A stretch of DNA of 64,000 bases from a virus: the IMG/VR virus record IMGVR_UViG_3300025108_004499. The stretch is one strand, 5' to 3'. How positions within the stretch are numbered: position 1 is the first letter of the stretch; each line of letters starts with the position of its first letter. This document shows positions 50,143 to 60,760 of this stretch, piece after piece. The position numbers and the translations under genes are program-made. Under the pieces are notes generated by a model. That model was given only the letters and a program-made list of their open reading frames with translations. It did no database searches and had not been told where the DNA came from.

Positions 50143-50421
50143 ATGGATTTTTTAACAATAGCAAAAGATTTAGGATTCCCAATCGCAGGGGCACTTGGTG
50201 CTGGCGGCTTTGTATTTTTAACACTTAAATTTATCCTAGCAGGTGTTACTGACTCTGTGACTACACTCAAAGGAATTATTGGATCTCTTGACAATCGTGT
50301 TCAAACTATGAACAACGACTTAGTTAAGATTGATGCACTACTGAGTCACGCATTACATATTAAACCAAACGTAGACAGAATTGCCGCTAACGAAGGCAAG
50401 GATGACGCAAGACGAGATTAA
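50143..50421 (+). CDS. Single-TM coiled-coil protein (paralog A)
   Basis: KDLGFPIAGALGAG..F...RV..MNNDLVKID. Confidence 0.7.
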   Translation: MDFLTIAKDLGFPIAGALGAGGFVFLTLKFILAGVTDSVTTLKGIIGSLDNRVQTMNNDLVKIDALLSHALHIKPNVDRIAANEGKDDARRD

Positions 50422-50434
50422 AGGAGAAACTAAA

Positions 50435-50638
50435 ATGATGTGGTTAGATTACACAATTAACCAAGCACCAGGAAGAGGCTTTAAAGTCGAAGGTGACACT
50501 CCAACAGAAGTAATGGACAAAGGCTTGTATAAGCCAGGCGATGTGTTTATTGTTAATGAAAGCGGCTGGCTAGTTAAGTCAGACGAATTATCATCAATGA
50601 TAATCAAACACGAAGCAAAGAAAAAGGAACCAGCATAA
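50435..50638 (+). CDS. Hypothetical protein (start revised to 50435)
   Basis: AAGGAG SD before MMWLDY. Confidence 0.6.
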   Translation: MMWLDYTINQAPGRGFKVEGDTPTEVMDKGLYKPGDVFIVNESGWLVKSDELSSMIIKHEAKKKEPA

Positions 50639-50641
50639 TCT

Positions 50642-50971
50642 ATGGAGTCAGAACTAACAAACGTAATTAAAGACTTAGGATTTCCAGTAGTTGCCGCTCT
50701 AGGTCTTGGTTACTTCATTTACTTTATTTGGAAATGGGTTACAGAAGTTATTGATCCTGTTATAGGTCAAACTATGGGTACACTAATTAAATTAGTTGAC
50801 CGTGTGCGTATGTTAGATAATGATATTATTCGCTTAAACACAAAGTTAAGCATGGTATTAGAAAACGAAGCCAAACTAGATAAAAAACGTAGAGCTGAAC
50901 TAGAAGAAATAGTTTCAAAATATACAGACATAACAAACGACCCATTTAATACAACGGGTACAAAAGATTGA
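50642..50971 (+). CDS. Single-TM coiled-coil protein (paralog B)
   Basis: KDLGFPVVAALGLG.F...RV.MLDNDIIRLN. Confidence 0.7.
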   Translation: MESELTNVIKDLGFPVVAALGLGYFIYFIWKWVTEVIDPVIGQTMGTLIKLVDRVRMLDNDIIRLNTKLSMVLENEAKLDKKRRAELEEIVSKYTDITNDPFNTTGTKD

Positions 50972-51132: not shown

Positions 51133-51184
51133 TACTAACGAGCGTAATGCTTATTGGAAAGCGTACTTACTTACTTCGAAGTAG
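51047..51184 (+). CDS. 45-aa overlapping ORF
   Basis: AGGAG SD 7 nt before MMYAQTANVKIPMEHYIAKLKEHEAKRLSTNERNAYWKAYLLTSK. Confidence 0.35.
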   Translation: MMYAQTANVKIPMEHYIAKLKEHEAKRLSTNERNAYWKAYLLTSK

Positions 51185-53219
51185 CAATAAACACACCGGA
51201 CCAGTCTTTAGGAAGGTCTTGTGTTTTCTGGAATTCACAACGTTCAATCCACATGTCATAGTATGCACTCATTTTGCCATCAAAGTGGCTGTGTAGTGTA
51301 TTACATAATTCTATTGCTTTGTCAAAGTCTTGTGCTAGATATGCTTTGTGCATTTCTTCATGCTTACGTTGTGCTGTACGCCAAGCAGGGCGTCTATTAT
51401 CTAACACTGTCCATATTGTAATACCTACAGTTTTACCTTTAACTGCTAAATCGTCGATTTTTAAATAGAAAAAGTCGGTTTTAGTACGTTGGTATGTCGC
51501 ATCTCCAACAAGTAATACACATCCGTATTCTTTACACTTGCTTTCAATACGAGCGGCTGTACTGACTGAGTCTCCAAGGACGTCATAACTGTGTCGGGCT
51601 GTTGAACCCATCTCGCCAAGATAGCCAAGCCCAGTATTAATACCAGCCCCCATACCCACTGGGGGTCTTCCTTCTTTGGTAATCTTATCATTAAATATCT
51701 CCACTGCTTTTAACATATCCAATCCGCATTGTACTGCTGTCTTTGGATGTTGCGGATCTTCAATTGGTGCATTGTGTACGTGCATACTTGCATCGCCAAT
51801 GTACTTAATAACCATACCGTCTGCGTCAAGTATAGGTTGTGTGATGGCATCCATGTAACCATTCATAATTTTTGTTAGACCTTTTACATCATCACCAAAT
51901 GATTCACCTAATGGTGTAAAGCCTCTTAGGTCTGAGAAACAAATTGAAACTTCTTTCTTCATACCATCTTTTATAAGTGCAGGATTCTCTTGTAGCATAC
52001 GTACTACTGTTGGTGATGCATATCCTGCAAACTGTTTTTTGATTGCTTGTTTCTGTGCATACTCACTTACAAATCTATTAAAGATTGCATGTAAGCCTAC
52101 TACAAATACAGTTACCATAGGCATTGTACCATCTAACAAGTACAAATAATTAACCCATGCATAATGTACACTATAGGTGAGTCCTCCCACAAACGCAACT
52201 AATATTCCTCCAGCCAACCAGTAAGGGGCAAACCTTCCAACGCACACCAGTGCTATGCCTAGTAGTCCGGTTGTGATAAGCTCTGCTAAGAATGCCCAAT
52301 AGGGACGCTCAATTTGATCGCCATCTATCACAGTTTGAAGTGTTACTGCGGCCGGTATATAGTTGTGTTGTGGTCCAGTCGGACTAGCGATTAAACCACC
52401 TATGCCTTCTGCGGTTACTCCTATAATAACAGTCTTCCCTTCAAACGATCTATAATCATCTGAGGCCGCACTAATAGTTTCAAATTGTTTATTCCATCTC
52501 AACCATATCTGTGCATTAGGATCTGTTTTTATAATTGGGTAACCAGGAACTCGTACTGCTTCTATTCCACCACCAGCTTCTTTAACTTGGTAACTAGGGT
52601 TTCCTGTTGCTACACGAATAACTTCAATTGCTAAAGCGGGATACGTGTCTTCGCCGACACGCATTAGGAGTGGTACTCGTCTTACAACACCGTCGATTTC
52701 TGGGTTAGTGTTCAACACGCCCACACCGTCAGCATTATCTCCTAGCAATTGGATTGGTCCTAACATTCCTGGCCATTCAAACATATATGGCACAGGATCA
52801 CCAATTTTCGCAATGCCTCGAGGGACCGCATTACGATTGGCTTGGGTACTTCCTACTTGTGCTATTACAACACCGTTACCCGCAAGTGCTTCAGCTAATT
52901 GAATATCACCACCTAGTCTATCTGTCTCAGACATGATAACAGGAATTACGATGATACCAGCACCTGCTTCGCGAAGTTTCCAGATTATATCTGCAATTAT
53001 ATCACGCTTCCAGGGCCATTGCCCGTACTTTTCAATGGCGGCTTCGTCAATGGTCACGATGCCGACGTCCTGGGATAATGTTGCCTTATCAGTTTGTTGA
53101 AGTAAGTCGAATTGCTTAAGGCGAGCAGTCTGCACTAATTGACCATCTGTGTAATGCAGACCTATCATAATGAACGCTGTGACAAACGCCACAGTCCAAT
53201 GTGTAATATACTTCGTCAT
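51171..53219 (-). CDS. CHASE2-domain class III adenylate cyclase with C-terminal TPR-like domain
   Basis: IDEAAIEKYGQWPW.R, DGVVRRVPL, three TM, FSDLRGFT, KYIGD, GINTG, GDSVSTAARIE, VKGK. Confidence 0.93.
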   Translation of the reverse strand: MTKYITHWTVAFVTAFIMIGLHYTDGQLVQTARLKQFDLLQQTDKATLSQDVGIVTIDEAAIEKYGQWPWKRDIIADIIWKLREAGAGIIVIPVIMSETDRLGGDIQLAEALAGNGVVIAQVGSTQANRNAVPRGIAKIGDPVPYMFEWPGMLGPIQLLGDNADGVGVLNTNPEIDGVVRRVPLLMRVGEDTYPALAIEVIRVATGNPSYQVKEAGGGIEAVRVPGYPIIKTDPNAQIWLRWNKQFETISAASDDYRSFEGKTVIIGVTAEGIGGLIASPTGPQHNYIPAAVTLQTVIDGDQIERPYWAFLAELITTGLLGIALVCVGRFAPYWLAGGILVAFVGGLTYSVHYAWVNYLYLLDGTMPMVTVFVVGLHAIFNRFVSEYAQKQAIKKQFAGYASPTVVRMLQENPALIKDGMKKEVSICFSDLRGFTPLGESFGDDVKGLTKIMNGYMDAITQPILDADGMVIKYIGDASMHVHNAPIEDPQHPKTAVQCGLDMLKAVEIFNDKITKEGRPPVGMGAGINTGLGYLGEMGSTARHSYDVLGDSVSTAARIESKCKEYGCVLLVGDATYQRTKTDFFYLKIDDLAVKGKTVGITIWTVLDNRRPAWRTAQRKHEEMHKAYLAQDFDKAIELCNTLHSHFDGKMSAYYDMWIERCEFQKTQDLPKDWSGVFIATSK

Positions 53220-53231
53220 ACTGTATTTATG

Positions 53232-53447
53232 TTACTTTGTGAGGTGTGAAGATTTTATTATTTCACGCTGTTCTAGTTGTTGTTTGAACATTGCTCGAAC
53301 TTCAGGTGCGTTGTCTGTTGCTTCTAAGAACTGTAATATACCGCTCCAACTGTTGCCCATAAACAGTATCCAACCGTCCTTGTATAATACGCTACGGCTG
53401 TTTAAATTTTTGAAGTAGAAGTTTTTATAGTGATATTCGTTCATCAC
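53232..53447 (-). CDS. Hypothetical protein
   Basis: Short ORF with its own TAAATA, inside the curli-like locus. Confidence 0.55.
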   Translation of the reverse strand: MMNEYHYKNFYFKNLNSRSVLYKDGWILFMGNSWSGILQFLEATDNAPEVRAMFKQQLEQREIIKSSHLTK

Positions 53448-53453
53448 TAATAT

Positions 53454-54884
53454 TTAGTTTTGGGTAATAGTAGTTGTGCCACAACCATTTGCGTTTACAC
53501 AATTTTGATTTATTGAATATACTTGTCCTGTTGAACTATCTTGTGTAAGATCAAGTCCTGAGTCATAACCTGACATTGAGATACTAGCATTGTGATTGCC
53601 ACTTCCGTCTTGTGTTATGTCAACTGTTTGATCGTTACCTACTGCTATTTCTGTATAGTGAGATCCTGATCCCCATTGGTTAACATCTATATCGTTGTCA
53701 TCACCTTGTACAGAAATAAATGCTTTTTTATCACTGTCATTTAACTGGCTGGTATTAACATTATTAATATCTCCATCTATATCTACTGCAATATAGTGTC
53801 CGTTGTTACCTACAGTATTATTATGATTTTGTGTAATACTTAATATATTAGAGTCACCGTCAATATCAAACTCAACTCTATTATCATCTGCACCTGTTGT
53901 AACTCCTTGGTCAACTGTTGTTGTATTAGAGTTGCCAGTAATCCCAAACAATATAACATTGTTTTCACCTTTTTGTTTGAGTGTAGTGTTGTTATTATCT
54001 CCAACTATCTCTGCTTTTGCTAAACTGCCGTTACCTGCAATAAGATTGTCATCGCCGTCTTGTACGATAGTAAGTGTATTGCTGTCTCCTATTTGTTCAA
54101 TGTATACACCGTTGCCACTGTGTGTTACACCTCTGGCTGTTGAGATCTGATTAGTTTGTGCATTGCTTATACTTGAAGTATATGTTGTCGTTGTTGCAAC
54201 TAATCCTGCTTCTGTCATTGCACGAGTTAGGAAGTCTACCATGTTATTACTATATTGATGTGTTGATAGTAATTGTCCATAACCAAATGAAACTGTAATT
54301 GATCCACCATTACTACCATACTCCCAATTATACCAAGTGTTCCAACTACTGCCTGTACTATTTTTTGCCATTGCTGTACCGCCACTTGCTGTAAACAGTT
54401 TGTCTGGTCCTGGCAATGTGTTTTCACTTGATGTGCTTGAAGCATAATCGCCTACCGCATATGAACCCCAACAGGTATTACAACTACCTGCTATATACAT
54501 ACTTCCTACACTTAATTTACTTTCAACCAACGATTCAATGCTACCTATTCTATTGGTTGCTCCGTTGGGTGCAAGAATGACTACGTGTCCTCCGTTGCCT
54601 ATAAAACTTTCATAGTTTGTTTTACACGTACTGCCACAGTTTGAAGTTCCTGCTATATCAATTACAAGTTCTTTGCCTGATAGATCATTTGAACTTACTG
54701 TGCCACTTGTACTTCCTGTCACAGTAAAACCTAAATCTTCAAGTTCACTTTTTAAATGATTGTAGTGTGAACTTGTGTTTGTTCCACCTGTGCTGTAATA
54801 TATTAAGGCATCATTTGCCCAACTAGTTGTTGGACTGAATAATAGTAATACTATTAGTGCCTTCGCTACCCAATCTATAGTCAT
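53454..54884 (-). CDS. Secreted curlin-repeat protein with N-terminal alpha/beta domain (start probably 54884)
   Basis: Signal peptide; C-terminal repeats of N...I.Q.G..N.....Q. Confidence 0.75.
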   Translation of the reverse strand: MTIDWVAKALIVLLLFSPTTSWANDALIYYSTGGTNTSSHYNHLKSELEDLGFTVTGSTSGTVSSNDLSGKELVIDIAGTSNCGSTCKTNYESFIGNGGHVVILAPNGATNRIGSIESLVESKLSVGSMYIAGSCNTCWGSYAVGDYASSTSSENTLPGPDKLFTASGGTAMAKNSTGSSWNTWYNWEYGSNGGSITVSFGYGQLLSTHQYSNNMVDFLTRAMTEAGLVATTTTYTSSISNAQTNQISTARGVTHSGNGVYIEQIGDSNTLTIVQDGDDNLIAGNGSLAKAEIVGDNNNTTLKQKGENNVILFGITGNSNTTTVDQGVTTGADDNRVEFDIDGDSNILSITQNHNNTVGNNGHYIAVDIDGDINNVNTSQLNDSDKKAFISVQGDDNDIDVNQWGSGSHYTEIAVGNDQTVDITQDGSGNHNASISMSGYDSGLDLTQDSSTGQVYSINQNCVNANGCGTTTITQN

Positions 54885-55983
54885 ATAGGAAGAAATCTCC
54901 TTGTTCAATATCTAGTGTGTAATCGTGTCTAGTATTTAATCTTAATCTAATAAAACCGCCTTGTTCAAAGTCTTCACGTTGCCATACCCAGTGCGGTTCT
55001 ATTTTGTCTAATCTAATTTGTGTTTTAGGATCAAACCCTACCTTAGGAACATTTGATAATAGTCTTGCGTTTTGTCTTTTTAATTCATCTTGGAACAATG
55101 CCGCTAGTGCTTCATTAAGTTTGTCTAGCATGTCATGTAGCATGTCAGCTAACATGTAATCAGTTTCGTCTAGTGCTGTTTTCCAAATACCTTCAATGCT
55201 ATCTTTGAGTGCATCGCCTTCTAAGCCGTCAAACTCTAAAAAGTCAACACCTAAGAAGTCTGCTAGTTTTCTACGTCTTTGCATTTCTGCTTCTGAGTAT
55301 TCATCAATAGGTGTACGCTTACGCAATAGTAATAGGTTGTTGATTTGGTCTTCGCTTAGATCTAACAGTACTGGCGGTGTTGGCTTACGCATACCATGTA
55401 CTGTTGCTGTTGCCTGGAACGCTTGATTCATAATAACCATACCAGCATCTGTTTCTACAGTAATTTCTCCTACGTAGCACATGCCTGCTGTATCACAACT
55501 AGGCAATAGTGTAATCATTGACCCGCCCACTTCATCTACGACCATTACGAAGTCTGTACCACGAACACCAATAGTAGCACTAGGTGTTCTTATCTTTACA
55601 TTCTGTTTGTATTTTTTTGCAATTTGGCCACTTGCATAACGCACTGTGCCTAAACTTGCTTTGAGGGAAAGTGACCCTACATCGTTTGCTGGGTCGTATA
55701 CAAACTCGTCAATTACTAGTCTTGATTGTTCTGTAAGTTCAACTCTTGTTTCGTCAACAAAGTCAATACGCATAGTACCGTTTGCTGTAACAGCAGAGTC
55801 CATGCTTTGAACACCAACACCTGCGTCTCCTTCAATAACAACATCGCCGTCTCTTTCAAGTACACCTGATCCTTTGATCTGTCCGATCTCTCCTACATTA
55901 CCATATGCAGGTCTAGCTATAATAGCTATTACTATCAAACCTAGGAGCAGAAACCATGTATACTTGTTCGGCGCCATTGTCAT
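54823..55983 (-). CDS. FecR-domain protein
   Basis: Signal/TM, I.F.D.T.V.L.E.S.L.ID.F.YDP, IRTPSATIGVRGTDF, G.I.V. Confidence 0.88.
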   Translation of the reverse strand: MTMAPNKYTWFLLLGLIVIAIIARPAYGNVGEIGQIKGSGVLERDGDVVIEGDAGVGVQSMDSAVTANGTMRIDFVDETRVELTEQSRLVIDEFVYDPANDVGSLSLKASLGTVRYASGQIAKKYKQNVKIRTPSATIGVRGTDFVMVVDEVGGSMITLLPSCDTAGMCYVGEITVETDAGMVIMNQAFQATATVHGMRKPTPPVLLDLSEDQINNLLLLRKRTPIDEYSEAEMQRRRKLADFLGVDFLEFDGLEGDALKDSIEGIWKTALDETDYMLADMLHDMLDKLNEALAALFQDELKRQNARLLSNVPKVGFDPKTQIRLDKIEPHWVWQREDFEQGGFIRLRLNTRHDYTLDIEQGDFFLYDYRLGSEGTNSITIIQSNN

Positions 55984-55986
55984 TCC

Positions 55987-56736
55987 TTAGTCGCTTTGTG
56001 TTATATCAACGTCTTGATCATCACCAGCAAAATCAGCGTCAACCATATTATCGTTGACTCCACTTTGTGTAACTGTATAACTACTTGCACCGCCTGTAGC
56101 ATCAATTTTAACTGTGTGTCCTGCACTGTCGCCGTCACCACTTATGTTAATATCAACTACATTACCTGCACCACTTGATGTTAAATTGTTTCCACTAGCC
56201 GCACCGCCACTTGCTGTGCTTGAACTATTGTTTACAGTAACCGCAACCAATGCACTTTTGCCGTCAACGTTTGAGTTAATAACGTTTCCGTCTCCAGTGA
56301 TTGTGAATCCAATTGTAGATCCATCTGCATCAGCTGTATCGCCAATGTCAAATGTAAATGCGTTTGAATCACCTGTTGCTGTAATATTTAAAGTTATGTT
56401 TTCACAATTGGTTCCACTTGTACTATCACAACTTAAATCCACTGTGTTACTATCTCCTGTAAACACCCATGTACCAGTATAAGTGTCACCTTGGATATCT
56501 GCTACGATTGTGTTTAAGCTACCTGTTTGTGTTATAGCAAATGTCATCGAGTCACCATCTAAGTTTACGTCTGTTGTTGATGTACCGATTACGTTATTTG
56601 CTCCGTCTTGCACAATATCTAAATCTAATGTATCACCCACTTGCTCAATGTATATGTCGTTAGCCAAAGCAGGAGCCACACTAAAGATTAGTAGTACTAA
56701 TGCTGTTAAGCTATTTGAAATGTACTTTCTTGTCAT
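55987..56736 (-). CDS. Secreted curlin-like beta-solenoid protein
   Basis: Signal peptide (ALA-), IYIEQVGD..IVQDGANN, repeated TG.SN and I.Q.G; acidic and G/S/T/N-rich. Confidence 0.75.
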   Translation of the reverse strand: MTRKYISNSLTALVLLIFSVAPALANDIYIEQVGDTLDLDIVQDGANNVIGTSTTDVNLDGDSMTFAITQTGSLNTIVADIQGDTYTGTWVFTGDSNTVDLSCDSTSGTNCENITLNITATGDSNAFTFDIGDTADADGSTIGFTITGDGNVINSNVDGKSALVAVTVNNSSSTASGGAASGNNLTSSGAGNVVDINISGDGDSAGHTVKIDATGGASSYTVTQSGVNDNMVDADFAGDDQDVDITQSD

Positions 56737-57703
56737 TGTTGTCCCTCGTTGTATTTGTTATTATTTTTTCTTCAGCTTCTATAGGCCAACATAAATCTTT
56801 CTCGCTACAGTACAATCTAGCTTTAGGCCATTTTTCCAATGCATCTTTTAATGGTAATGGTCTCAGCTTAGGCACCTCGCCTTTGTATTTTGTACTGACC
56901 TCTTTAAACTTCCAAAGTCCTTCCTTTTCACCTTCATATACCAGTTGCACTACACCTGCTTCAATTGCCGCCCTTACAGCATAATTTACTGGCTCGTTAA
57001 CAGAGTAACCTGTCTCCGACTCTATCAATTTAGTTCCCATATCTAAGAACTTAAATACGTCTGCTCCAGACCTTGAACTTGCAATAGTTTTTTCTGTTGC
57101 AATACTCAATAACACCTTTCCAGTGCTAACTGATACAATTCTCATCACTACTGTGACTGTATCAACTCTATACTCAGTTTGTGCGCCTACTCCAAGATAT
57201 CTTGCACCAGCACCTCCAATAGCTACATTGCTATCGTAACCAATAATGCCGCCTTCAAGTATCAGTCCTGCAAATACCATTGGCTTTAATGCTCTTGGAC
57301 CGTTCGGTAAGTTTTTCTCGTATACTTCTCTAGTGTTACGGATCAACTGTCTTTCTTTAATCAAGTTATCCATACCTATACGTTCAACAACTTCGAACCA
57401 TGTTTTGTTGCCTATATCTTGCAGAGCTTTTATAACCCAAACCTCTGAACCTTGCGTTACTGCACTAGATAGATTAGCAATATTATCTGCAGGTTTACGT
57501 TGTCCAGTTTTATCTGAAAAACTATAAACTGCAATAGTAATTTTCTGCCCGTCTAACTCAGGAACTGCAATCATCCTGTCTGCTAATGGAGCCGGCTGTA
57601 TCCTTGGTGGACCAGCATTTTCCTTTATAGCCAGTGACTGTTGCATTGTTCCACTGCATCCAGTTAGTAACAATAAGCCTATGATAGTTAAGATCTTGTT
57701 CAA
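56711..57703 (-). CDS. csgG: CsgG-family curli secretion lipoprotein
   Basis: Lipobox LTGC; AVYSFSDKTGQRKP, SSAVTQG, WFEVVER..L..ERQLIR, EGGIIGYDSN..GGAGARYLGVG, NEPV. Confidence 0.92.
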   Translation of the reverse strand: MNKILTIIGLLLLTGCSGTMQQSLAIKENAGPPRIQPAPLADRMIAVPELDGQKITIAVYSFSDKTGQRKPADNIANLSSAVTQGSEVWVIKALQDIGNKTWFEVVERIGMDNLIKERQLIRNTREVYEKNLPNGPRALKPMVFAGLILEGGIIGYDSNVAIGGAGARYLGVGAQTEYRVDTVTVVMRIVSVSTGKVLLSIATEKTIASSRSGADVFKFLDMGTKLIESETGYSVNEPVNYAVRAAIEAGVVQLVYEGEKEGLWKFKEVSTKYKGEVPKLRPLPLKDALEKWPKARLYCSEKDLCWPIEAEEKIITNTTRDNNDKKVHFK

Positions 57704-58170
57704 AAGTTAAAATTCCCTGAGCCTGGTATTTCAATAGTAGTAGTGCTTCCATCTTCTTCAACAATGGTTAGCGTAATTGCTCCTGTTGTTGTGTCTTTAG
57801 CCCACGATATTTGCGAACCTTCGATTTCTGCTGATCCACTGTTTGCACAACTATTACCACAATCAGCGAACATACTATCTACCATTTGCTTACTTAACGT
57901 TGCGTAAATTCTTGACTCAACGTTCTTAATAAACTTATTCAGGGTAGTATTTTCTAACTCTCGTTCTAATCTTTTAGCCTCTGCGTTTGCCTCATCTTGT
58001 AAATCTTTCTTTCTATTAAATTGTAGTTGCTCAACACTTAAAACATGTGACGAGTAACCATTTCCATAATGGAAAGCTGGAGATTTAAAACCCCAAGTAA
58101 GTTCGGCGGCCACTGGCTTGCTGATTAATAACATAATTGTAACGCCTATGTATATAATACTTTTGTACAT
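57700..58170 (-). CDS. csgF: CsgF-like curli assembly protein
   Basis: Signal peptide then EL.W.FKSPAF..GNG..S.VL..EQ; F...VESRIY..LS; C-terminal DGSTTTIEIP. Confidence 0.8.
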   Translation of the reverse strand: MYKSIIYIGVTIMLLISKPVAAELTWGFKSPAFHYGNGYSSHVLSVEQLQFNRKKDLQDEANAEAKRLERELENTTLNKFIKNVESRIYATLSKQMVDSMFADCGNSCANSGSAEIEGSQISWAKDTTTGAITLTIVEEDGSTTTIEIPGSGNFNF

Positions 58171-58219
58171 TTGTCAGACTCCTATATATGATATTTATCA
58201 GATCGTAATAGTGTTGCCT

Positions 58220-58233
58220 CCCTCACGCTTTAC
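58220..58233 (-). repeat. Copy 1 of the 14-bp repeat GTARAGCGTGAGGG
   Basis: 13/14 identical to 58568-58581; both sit just downstream of TAAATA. Confidence 0.6.
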
Positions 58234-58250
58234 ACATCTATTTATATATA

Positions 58251-58270
58251 GGTGTAAATAATTTTACACC
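58251..58270. promoter_or_regulatory. Palindromic operator GGTGTAAA-TAAT-TTTACACC (TGT-N10-ACA)
   Basis: Perfect 8-bp inverted repeat between the divergent csgF and Fis-like genes. Confidence 0.6.
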
Positions 58271-58313
58271 AATATAACATACTTACGTATAGATAAGCAT
58301 ACTAAATACTTTT

Positions 58314-58544
58314 ATGACAACATATAAAGAAGAACAAGATGGATTATGGGCCGCATTAGACGAAGCATTTCCTATCAACACTAAATTACAAACAAATCTC
58401 AATGATGAAGTTACTAAACTTGAAATGAGTCGTATAAGTGAAGCACTAAGAGAACATGATGGTAATCAAACTAAAGCCGCAAAGTCTTTGGATTTAGGTA
58501 GAGTTACATTTATTGCTAAGGCAAAAAAGTACGAATTAGTTTAA
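58314..58544 (+). CDS. Stand-alone Fis-family HTH protein
   Basis: LE..RI.EAL..HDGNQTKAAKSLDLGRVTF..K.KKY. Confidence 0.88.
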   Translation: MTTYKEEQDGLWAALDEAFPINTKLQTNLNDEVTKLEMSRISEALREHDGNQTKAAKSLDLGRVTFIAKAKKYELV

Positions 58545-58590: not shown

Positions 58591-59277
58591 TTATTTAATC
58601 TTAGGAAAGAGCATGTCTGTGCAGAATTTATCAACGTCTGCTTCATTAAGCCCTAGGCTTTTCATTACTCTTGGGGTATGTGGATTTTGTTGCTGATTAT
58701 GGCAATAGTAGTTTTGACTTGCAATAGTTAAGTCTCTATCACCTTCGCCTGTATACTGGCCAACGGAATCAAAGTACGTTTCAAGGTTGTCAAGCGCCAG
58801 TTGAATAATAACAGTTGCTTCTTCTTCCTTTACATTGCTTGCCGCAATCATACTTGGAGTAAAGATGTTTGTTGCCCACTCGGGTAACTCACGCTTCTTT
58901 TCTGGCACAAAGTCTTGTACTGCACTCTGATACCATTGAACCATAGGGTGATCTTCTCCGCCTGAACTAGCAGAAAAATCATGGAAAGCACCAGTCATTT
59001 TAGTCTTTCCTGCAATAACGTCAAATCCGTAAATTGGACCGTTATTGTTAAGTTGTGGAAATACACAAACATGCATCATCCACAAACCTTTAGTATCTCT
59101 TGCGTCGACTACATCAATATGAGCTCTGCGAACATGTTCGTTCTCCCATACTCTGTTAATCCAACTCCCGTCAGCCTGATTAAAATGGTCCATTCCTGGT
59201 TCATTTATTTCAGTGCCGCGGGCATTGAACATTTGAATGATATCTTCTTGACAGTCGACGAGTTGATCCCAGATCAC
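58591..59277 (-). CDS. pcyX: Ferredoxin-dependent bilin reductase, PcyX/PcyA-like
   Basis: W.NRVW...RRAHIDVVD..GLWMMH.C.FP, PIYGFDVIAG..K.TGAFHDFS, RELPEWA..IF, QN.YC.NQQQNPHT; next to heme oxygenase. Confidence 0.85.
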   Translation of the reverse strand: MIWDQLVDCQEDIIQMFNARGTEINEPGMDHFNQADGSWINRVWENEHVRRAHIDVVDARDTKGLWMMHVCVFPQLNNNGPIYGFDVIAGKTKMTGAFHDFSASSGGEDHPMVQWYQSAVQDFVPEKKRELPEWATNIFTPSMIAASNVKEEEATVIIQLALDNLETYFDSVGQYTGEGDRDLTIASQNYYCHNQQQNPHTPRVMKSLGLNEADVDKFCTDMLFPKIK

Positions 59278-59296
59278 TTTACTCTCCTACTTAACT

Positions 59297-59890
59297 TTAG
59301 TAAGTGAAATTGTTTAGTTCTTCAAAAATTGCTGTTGAAAGTTCAAAAGCCTTATTAGCTTCGTCAGCCATGCTATCTTTAGTACGCTTACGAATTAATG
59401 CTTTCATTTCATCTACAGAATGATTCATATCTGCGAATGCATACATTCTACCTGATCCAGGTACTTTGTTTGCAATCATTTGTCCGCCACTCAAATCGCC
59501 CATGTGTCTTACATAAACGTGTGCAAACAATTTGTCTTTATCGTGTTGACAATTTTTTACAATGTGACTTCTGTATGCTTCTGCTGAAGGTGCTATCTGT
59601 GGTGGATTTGAACCATCTTCGGCTCCACCTAATTCTACGTAGTCTGCCCAAATATCATCTGCTTGGATTAAACCATCTAATGGTAGATCGTCATCCGGCA
59701 TTGATAAATCTTCTGGTCCAAAACAACCCATGCTTAGTGCAACATCTTCTAGGATGTCATATACTAACCACATGTTGTATAGGTATGTTTTATATTTTAC
59801 TTCGCTCATTTTGCCAGACATCATTTCTCTTGCGAATTCCTGACGTTCTGCGTTCTGATGAGCGGCTTGTGTTAGTGATGCTAAACTCAT
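59297..59890 (-). CDS. hemO: Biliverdin-producing heme oxygenase
   Basis: LT..AH..AE, AHVYVRHMGDLSGGQMI, EAN.AF. Confidence 0.92.
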   Translation of the reverse strand: MSLASLTQAAHQNAERQEFAREMMSGKMSEVKYKTYLYNMWLVYDILEDVALSMGCFGPEDLSMPDDDLPLDGLIQADDIWADYVELGGAEDGSNPPQIAPSAEAYRSHIVKNCQHDKDKLFAHVYVRHMGDLSGGQMIANKVPGSGRMYAFADMNHSVDEMKALIRKRTKDSMADEANKAFELSTAIFEELNNFTY

Positions 59891-59941
59891 TTAATTACTC
59901 CTTGTGTAATAGTTATCATTCAATTTACTAGTGTATTTATA

Positions 59942-60253
59942 CTATTCTTTTTCAATTGCCACCTGTAAAGGATAGCCATGTTCTCTAGAAATCTTAGTAC
60001 ATTCCACTGCTTTTTGTTCAGCAATCTCATATGTGTATAGTCCAACTACTGCTGAACCTTTCTCATGTATTGCCATAGTTAGTTCTTGTGCAGTTTGTGC
60101 TGAATGCCTAAAAATATCTACTAATAAATCTACAACAAAATCCATAGGAGTTTCGTTGTCGTTAGCAAAGATTACTTTGTATTTGCCCGGCTCTTGGACA
60201 ACTTCTTTAATCTTTTCTTTTACATTAATTTCTGTTTCTAGTTCTACGCTCAT
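59942..60253 (-). CDS. clpS: ClpS adaptor
   Basis: YKVIFAND..TPMDFVV..L...F, IHEKG.AVVG.YT.EIAE.K, YPL. Confidence 0.92.
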   Translation of the reverse strand: MSVELETEINVKEKIKEVVQEPGKYKVIFANDNETPMDFVVDLLVDIFRHSAQTAQELTMAIHEKGSAVVGLYTYEIAEQKAVECTKISREHGYPLQVAIEKE

Positions 60254-60271
60254 ATCATTTTCCTTTGTTTC

Positions 60272-60293
60272 GGGGGAGTTATTGCACTCCCCC
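60272..60293. other. Stable intergenic hairpin (mRNA 3' stabiliser or terminator)
   Basis: GGGGGAGT-6nt-ACTCCCCC between hsp20 and clpS; no U-tract. Confidence 0.5.
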
Positions 60294-60301
60294 TAGACTG
60301 T

Positions 60302-60760
60302 TTACTTACTTTCACCGTCAATTGTAAGACCATCATTGATCTTAATTGTTTTAGGCTTTAATGCCTCTGGCAATTCACGTTCTAAGTGAATGTTAAGCAT
60401 GCCTAGCTCAAGGCTTGCATTTTTAACATTTACATGATCTGCAAGTGTAAACTCCCTGCGGAAACTACGTCCGCCAATACCTTTGTGTAGGTAATTGACT
60501 TGTTCATCTCCTTTAGGGGCAGTTCCTTCAATCTTTAGTGTATCACCGTCTTTAGTAATATTAAGATTGTCCATACCAAAGCCAGCAACTGCGACTGAGA
60601 TCATATACTCGTCATCGTTGATTTGTGCTATGTTGTATGGTGGATACCCATTTCCGTTTGGACTATTTGCGAACTGCGTGTTCATTTGTTCAAATAATCT
60701 ATCAAAGCCTACTGTGGCTCTGTGGAAGTGTGGTAGGTCTAGAGTTGTTAGTCTTGTCAT
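60302..60760 (-). CDS. ibpA: Small heat-shock protein, IbpA-like
   Basis: VGFDRLF, YPPYNI, AVAGF, YLHKGI..RSF.R.FTLA, GML.I.L. Confidence 0.93.
   Translation of the reverse strand: MTRLTTLDLPHFHRATVGFDRLFEQMNTQFANSPNGNGYPPYNIAQINDDEYMISVAVAGFGMDNLNITKDGDTLKIEGTAPKGDEQVNYLHKGIGGRSFRREFTLADHVNVKNASLELGMLNIHLERELPEALKPKTIKINDGLTIDGESK

Follow-up and report, generated by a model that had tools for sequence, protein, structure and literature searches.

The 64,000-nucleotide stretch of viral DNA filed in IMG/VR as IMGVR_UViG_3300025108_004499 (the window, by which we mean the whole stretch that was analysed) carries a cassette in which curli-type secretion genes stand together with genes for a FecR-fold protein and a CHASE2 adenylate cyclase. 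Read along the minus strand, the cassette begins with a csgF-like gene (57700..58170; 156 aa), whose secreted product has a signal peptide with an N-terminal hydrophobic segment and matches Pfam CsgF (E 4.4e-13) and phrog_35372 (E 1.3e-51), followed by a csgG-like gene (56711..57703; 330 aa) for an outer-membrane lipoprotein channel with an LTGC lipobox (Pfam CsgG, E 1.9e-48). Then come the genes for a curlin-like repeat protein, curlin A (55987..56736; 249 aa, signal peptide, two conserved Cys), for the exported FecR-fold protein (54823..55983; 386 aa, signal peptide; Pfam FecR, E 3.9e-09), and for a second curlin-repeat protein, curlin B (53454..54908; 484 aa), which has a non-repeat N-terminal domain of about 210 residues and matches Pfam Curlin_rpt at residues 303-334 (E 1.3e-11). 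A small open reading frame (ORF) of 71 aa (53232..53447), whose membership of the module is uncertain, precedes the gene for a receptor-type class III adenylate cyclase of 682 aa (51171..53219; Pfam CHASE2 1.3e-38 and Guanylate_cyc 1.7e-16). Each of the first five genes touches or overlaps its neighbour, or nearly so: csgF and csgG share 4 nt, csgG and the curlin A gene share 26 nt, and a gap of 3 nt separates the curlin A gene from the FecR gene, which overlaps the curlin B gene. The window is phage-like, its large ORFs matching PHROG tail fibre, ligase, endonuclease and other families; its relatives are IMG/VR contigs, and no close DNA relative was found among catalogued phages. A preliminary description of this DNA had listed eight genes, namely these seven as a mostly overlapping, co-oriented set and a divergent HTH_8 gene treated below; their coordinates and domains all agreed with the ORF list and with Pfam matches above the curated cut-offs, curlin A excepted. 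The high novelty that it implied did not hold, since the module, including FecR and the cyclase, had already been reported (Wittmers et al., 2022; PMC9599517). The cassette of the window is thus a divergent member of a known, published module.

The gene order in related viruses was surveyed by a scan of viral contigs seeded with FecR (70 loci) and a reverse scan seeded with CsgG (73 loci), about 140 viral contigs overall, all counts being limited to genes within each contig's reach. These contigs proved to share the arrangement csgF-csgG-curlin-FecR-curlin-(cargo)-CHASE2 cyclase with two cultured phages, Pelagibacter phage HTVC008M and Methylophilales phage Melnitz. Such recurrence goes far beyond what chance would give and indicates that the cassette is a real, selected unit. 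In the FecR-seeded scan, CsgF, CsgG and curlin A were found at 65/65 loci where the flank allows, the second curlin directly after FecR at 50/51, and the cyclase at 23/25 (20 downstream and 3 upstream); in the CsgG-seeded scan, the order was identical at all 73 loci. The preliminary description had proposed such a survey and had named FecR and cyclase genes without csg genes in relatives as one outcome that would refute its idea; co-occurrence was near-total, and the idea was not refuted on this count. The gap between curlin B and the cyclase is a hot spot for unrelated cargo, which at loci L003, L008, L011 and L049 includes genes for an Fe/Mn superoxide dismutase, a radical SAM/SPASM enzyme and a nuclease of staphylococcal type, as well as for proteins with a CHAP domain or an autotransporter beta-domain.

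The curli components were analyzed individually. The Pfam CsgG match spans 203 of the 210 profile positions, and the protein shares 42-49% identity with alphaproteobacterial CsgG. Export signals were found on all five central proteins, CsgG having its lipobox and CsgF, curlin A, FecR and curlin B having signal-peptide-like starts. As regards the two curlin-like genes claimed in the preliminary description, curlin B was confirmed by its own Curlin_rpt match, whereas curlin A of the window has no Pfam match of its own and owes its assignment to its relatives: its alignment shows IxIxQxGxxN-type repeats, 4 of 12 orthologues match Curlin_rpt, and a curlin A profile recovers proteins adjoining csgFG in bacteria. 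The same profile gave no significant match with solved structures, CsgA included. The true start of curlin B is probably the ATG at position 54884, and the Atlas entry for this protein begins at residue 9; an Atlas search with its N-terminal domain returned viral curlin clusters only. Judged by sequence, the cassette contains three components of type VIII secretion, namely a CsgG channel, CsgF and predicted secreted curlin-repeat subunits. It holds neither a CsgB-type nucleator nor CsgE, and the absence of csgE remarked on in the preliminary description was borne out, PF10627 being unmatched in five related phage records and in the ORFs of the region. The 71-aa ORF matched no family and was not found at the corresponding site in Melnitz or HTVC008M; homologues with 39-67% identity occur at varying positions in related contigs, and it is probably a real small gene.

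To describe the FecR-fold protein, a structure model was built from a 52-sequence alignment (mean predicted local distance difference test, pLDDT, 83.7); an earlier model from 14 sequences (pLDDT 53) was discarded. The model comprises a beta domain (residues 31-205), a helical part (225-310) and a second beta domain (316-383). The first beta domain superimposes on the periplasmic domain of PupR (6OVK; Z 15.4, 135 residues, root-mean-square deviation 2.6), and the model also matches 4M0N, a putative anti-sigma factor from Parabacteroides (Z 14.4). No cytoplasmic anti-sigma domain and no transmembrane helix were found in the protein, the signal peptide running straight into the beta domain. The protein therefore has the fold of a FecR regulator but is not itself a FecR-type anti-sigma regulator; its PupR-like periplasmic fold is in line with the relay role that the preliminary description had inferred for it. 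In metagenomes, this protein alone accounts for over 5,000 clusters when sequences are grouped at 90% identity. Its bacterial homologues cover profile positions of about 4-227 only, that is, the N-terminal 200 residues or so, and a profile of the C-terminal domain found nothing in the bacterial loci. Searched against 1.84 billion representatives, the same C-terminal profile recovered phage FecR proteins or their fragments and a few giant repeat proteins of mixed Pfam content (FN3, cadherin, ACP and MBG), the best pairwise E of which, 0.25, is insignificant. Among the sequences searched, the predicted C-terminal domain is accordingly found only in phage homologues. A curlin-like nature of this domain was considered and rejected, as hhalign against the curlin A profile aligned 11 columns (G..N.I.I.QS) at a probability of 1.3% and Pfam gave no match.

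The same model bears on a structural reading, in which the FecR-fold protein relays nothing. It would instead sit in the periplasm as a retention or plug module, holding the fibre at the pore or nucleating it there, much as giant RTX adhesins are retained by a domain at their N-terminus. Residues 27-122 match 5IX9, a 'cell surface anchoring domain' (Z 10.4, 74/76 residues) that acts as a retention domain. In alphaproteobacteria, homologues of the domain form the N-terminus of giant RTX-repeat proteins, and a cassette lacking both a CsgB-type nucleator and CsgE would suit an anchoring protein. On the other hand, the same domain is repeatedly paired with CHASE2 sensors in bacteria, as described below, and anchoring and relay are not mutually exclusive roles. 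We consider a purely structural role improbable. The alphaproteobacterial proteins themselves can be very large: the one at locus L121 (G267) has 30 RTX calcium-binding repeats behind the FecR-like domain at its N-terminus, and some frames headed by such a domain reach 5,000-6,900 codons.

The cyclase consists of a CHASE2 domain (residues 15-321) and a class III catalytic domain (residues 421-601) with a hydrophobic block (residues 307-400) between them, a CHASE2 topology that fits the receptor role suggested for it earlier. It shares 65% identity with the cyclase of Melnitz and 45% with that of HTVC008M. In an alignment with CyaB (3R5G), the metal sites are occupied by D430 and D476 and the substrate-specifying sites by K472 and D546, with R557 and K596 also in place and S553 at the position of the usual Asn; 6 of 7 catalytic residues are thus kept, and the residue calls of the preliminary description, including the Ser, were right. 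Two subtypes were distinguished among 30 phage cyclases. The subtype of the window and Melnitz (Asp546 with Ser553) accounts for 19, and that of HTVC008M, in which the Asp site holds Ser and the usual Asn is kept, for 10; the bacterial relatives retain the Asn and have Ser or Thr at the Asp site. Being fixed across the 19 members of its subtype together with Asp546, Ser553 appears to be a paired change and not a sign of decay.

The origin of the cassette was traced in about 400 alphaproteobacterial genomes. Bacterial gene context was taken from whole-genome searches, because a contig scan of metagenome-assembled genomes (MAGs) gave mostly mis-binned phage contigs. CsgG with the above-mentioned 42-49% identity was found in seven genomes, at loci that hold csgF and csgG; curlin-like genes recognised by the phage curlin A profile were present at 4/7 of these loci, and at none of the seven was FecR or a cyclase encoded within 9 kb. 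Conversely, the best 20 loci of bacterial FecR homologues contained neither csgG nor csgF, and several of them adjoin CHASE2 proteins whose output is a cyclase or a SpoIIE phosphatase. Locus L126 encodes a CHASE2 cyclase closely similar to that of the phage (E 1.4e-135), and loci L127 and L132 encode CHASE2-SpoIIE phosphatases; swapping of output domains behind CHASE2 is classically taken to mark a sensor-partner pair. By cross-matching the places listed in the FecR and CHASE2 searches, which gives a lower bound, we counted at least 20 instances, spread over 19 genomes, in which FecR and CHASE2 genes lie within 7 kb of each other, against about 0.5 expected by chance. Since the sampled bacterial csgFG loci lack FecR and the cyclase, and the bacterial FecR loci have no csgG or csgF but in several cases have CHASE2, the cassette looks chimeric: it appears, on gene context, that phages joined an alphaproteobacterial csgF-csgG-curlin operon to a FecR/CHASE2 sensor pair. 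Genes for outer-membrane proteins also lie near bacterial FecR-CHASE2 pairs, namely one for a ShlB/POTRA two-partner-secretion transporter (L132, 11816-13534) and an OmpA-like one (L126, 9593-10627). The genomic context hints that an outer-membrane partner is a general feature of such bacterial FecR-CHASE2 pairs; a literature search returned no paper naming CHASE2 together with ShlB.

A double ancestry would also suit the view that two independent auxiliary units of cargo, the curli genes on the one hand and the FecR/CHASE2-cyclase pair on the other, share a hypervariable island but exchange no signal. The two units are unlinked in bacteria, variable cargo precedes the cyclase in the phages, the cyclase can sit upstream, and its subtype can be exchanged between lineages. 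Yet the FecR gene is nested between the curlin genes with its frame abutting or overlapping theirs, co-occurrence is near-total in both search directions, and FecR has gained a C-terminal domain not found in its bacterial homologues. We assign the independent-cargo view only a small probability.

Several published systems resemble parts of the cassette. Zaragoza-Solas et al. (2020; PMC7029224) noticed csgF and csgG with unnamed partners in pelagimyophages and proposed 'sibling capture'. The full module was described by Wittmers et al. (2022; PMC9599517) as CsgF, CsgG, CsgA/B, FecR, another CsgA/B and an adenylate cyclase, to which podophages add a histidine kinase. These authors found it at all 65 GOV2.0 stations with metatranscriptome evidence of expression, and reported its alphaproteobacterial affinity, its movement between myophages and podophages, and the absence of CsgC, CsgD and CsgE from the alphaproteobacterial type VIII secretion system (T8SS) modules that the viral ones resemble. 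Their paper reads FecR as an iron regulator and is silent on CHASE2, on topology and on the bacterial FecR-CHASE2 pairing. The window agrees with the pelagiphage T8SS region in gene order, in the lack of CsgC, CsgD and CsgE, and in having alphaproteobacteria as nearest cellular relatives. Unlike the podophage T8SS region, it has a 76-aa HTH_8 gene and a candidate operator upstream and no histidine kinase, and it further has the Asp/Ser cyclase subtype and a hemO/bilin-reductase cassette alongside. What is new here is the apparent chimeric origin, the PupR-like fold with a phage-restricted C-terminal domain, the two cyclase subtypes, the pairing of HTH_8 with a putative operator, and the failure to find a CRP-type cAMP receptor in the related phages and SAR11 genomes searched.

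Cellular counterparts combine some of the same elements. The Sinorhizobium meliloti cyclases CyaD1, CyaD2 and CyaK are inner-membrane CHASE2 class III cyclases that need an outer-membrane beta-barrel, NsrA, for activation, and the system includes a FecR-domain gene, smc02177; it differs from the cassette in being cellular, in having NsrA instead of CsgG/CsgF, and in giving its output via the CRP-type Clr, of which no counterpart was found here. The Burkholderia 'BiofilmReg' operon likewise has an exported FecR-domain protein adjoining a CHASE2 sensor and a surface/biofilm phenotype, whereas its output is a histidine kinase with a response regulator, its FecR protein bears LysM, and it has no curli genes. 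The FecR/PupR anti-sigma regulators share the periplasmic domain fold (6OVK) with the cassette protein but possess the anti-sigma domain and membrane anchor, and the cassette contains no gene for a TonB-dependent transducer or an extracytoplasmic function (ECF) sigma factor.

Taken together, a trans-envelope signalling reading of the cassette is plausible from its gene content, and it gains some strength from the pairing of FecR with CHASE2 in bacteria, from the fold match and from the precedent of S. meliloti; the surface fibres, the relay and the cyclic AMP (cAMP) response are what we infer. We propose, tentatively and at slightly less than even odds, that the published marine-phage curli module with FecR and cyclase acts as a five-step pathway. 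First, the cassette would be transcribed from a late-type promoter, as a motif upstream of csgF suggests. Second, the CsgG lipoprotein and CsgF would, by homology, form an outer-membrane channel in the infected cell. Third, the two Sec-exported curlin-repeat proteins, one with its extra N-terminal domain, would cross this channel and polymerise on the surface. Fourth, the FecR-fold protein would stay periplasmic, its N-terminal domain partnering the CHASE2 ectodomain of the inner-membrane cyclase, as the bacterial gene pairs imply, and its C-terminal domain possibly tethering it to the pore or the fibre. Finally, the cyclase, with its nearly complete predicted catalytic set, would alter cytoplasmic cAMP.

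Several observations weigh against this signalling pathway. The cNMP (cyclic nucleotide monophosphate)-binding domain PF00027 was absent from the complete Melnitz and HTVC008M genomes and from three large related contigs, and it was also absent from 26 SAR11-type genomes, although SAR11 may not be the host of this phage; class III cyclases were lacking in the same 26 genomes. The positive controls of these searches worked. With no cNMP-binding protein in the searched phages or SAR11 genomes, a reader of cAMP is missing. The Ser in place of the transition-state Asn may make the activity of the cyclase low. In relatives, the cyclase is often split off by unrelated cargo or moved upstream, and its subtype is not always congruent with FecR relatedness: locus L008 has a FecR 68% identical to that of the window yet the Ser/Asn subtype, whereas loci L012-L015, with FecR at 58-59%, have the window's Asp/Ser subtype at 83-84% cyclase identity. 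This mismatch suggests exchange of the cyclase between lineages, and, together with the cargo in the gap, it shows that the linkage of the cyclase, though conserved, is less strict than among the first five genes. Furthermore, no clumping was seen in Melnitz-infected cultures (Buchholz et al., 2022; PMC9004378).

Since hosts such as SAR11 lack both a class III cyclase and a CRP-type receptor, a bolder version of the pathway supplies an unrecognised cAMP receptor encoded by the phage. The phage would then own a self-contained sensory pathway, in which FecR bridges the pore or fibre (through its C-terminal domain) and CHASE2 (through its ancestral N-terminal domain), and surface events such as contact, superinfection or envelope damage set the level of cAMP, which that receptor would read, for example to delay or trigger lysis. 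We regard this version as unlikely. Should the cassette indeed sense the envelope and make cAMP, phages would have a signalling pathway of their own inside some of the sea's most abundant cells, and the missing cAMP receptor would become a concrete search target. The cassette is very common in ocean viromes, and it equips streamlined hosts with a whole surface structure and with a second-messenger enzyme, neither of which they possess themselves. The window's own contribution is modest, namely a divergent copy with a putative regulator-operator pair and a distinct cyclase subtype.

The region upstream of csgF contains two candidate regulatory elements. A T4-type late-promoter-like box, TATAAATA, lies on the minus strand at 58239..58246, about 70 nt upstream of csgF, and the same motif was found no more than 200 nt upstream of csgF in 30/96 distinct upstream regions, against about 2.6 expected, which suggests T4-type late transcription. 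Between csgF and the divergent HTH_8 gene (58314..58544, plus strand; 76 aa, Fis/NtrC-type, Pfam HTH_8 E 2.9e-10) lies the palindrome TGTAAA-N4-TTTACA (58253..58268). It occurs once in the window, where 0.03 occurrences are expected, and as a single copy at the corresponding place in 24 related loci. The gene and the palindrome were both present at 22 loci and both absent at 106; the gene alone was present at 7 and the palindrome alone at 1. The HTH_8 protein is thus a candidate lineage-specific regulator, with the palindrome upstream of csgF as its putative operator.

On the plus strand beyond the cyclase, positions 50143..50971 hold two paralogous genes for single-pass membrane/coiled-coil proteins (92 and 109 aa; phrog_18771), both with N-terminal transmembrane segments, and an 85-aa ORF; the membership of all three in the module is uncertain. 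Genes of phrog_18771 adjoin the module in 45/45 loci with both flanks, being upstream of csgF in 21, downstream of the cyclase in 20 and on both sides in 4, independently of the orientation of the module; myophage-type relatives have them upstream, where the window has the HTH_8 gene. These proteins may belong to the system.

The promoter box and the flanking membrane proteins are also what would be expected if CsgG and CsgF merely formed a gated outer-membrane pore of pinholin- or secretin-like type, serving lysis timing or uptake, with the other genes as accessories. A lysis-timing pore was proposed for Melnitz (Buchholz et al., 2022; PMC9004378) and an uptake function by Zaragoza-Solas et al. 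(2020; PMC7029224), and the CsgE gate is, as noted above, not found in five related phage records. The pore proposal assumed that there are no fibre subunits, yet two curlin-repeat genes are kept in nearly every copy, and the strict linkage to FecR and the cyclase is left unexplained. A pore-only function therefore seems doubtful to us, and distinctly so.

Beside the module, positions 58591-60760 hold genes for a bilin reductase-like protein (phrog 'ferredoxin oxidoreductase') and a heme oxygenase-like protein, followed by ClpS and Hsp20 genes. This block is conserved in the clade of the window and resembles the marine phage hemO-pcyX cassette known from the literature. Near-identical module contigs (L073-L079) were found binned in MAGs assigned to Pirellulales, Legionellales, Rhodobacteraceae, Polynucleobacter, Pelagibacter and Flavobacteriaceae, one Rhodobacteraceae bin containing five CsgG copies; the presence of module contigs in MAGs of such unrelated taxa is most likely due to mis-binning. 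CheckV rated three contigs of the clade, L006, L012 and L021 (G406, G405 and G404), of 84, 96 and 133 kb, as 23, 27 and 37% complete, respectively, which implies genomes near 350 kb, compared with about 145 kb for pelagimyophages. The module also occurs on contigs as long as 237 and 300 kb.

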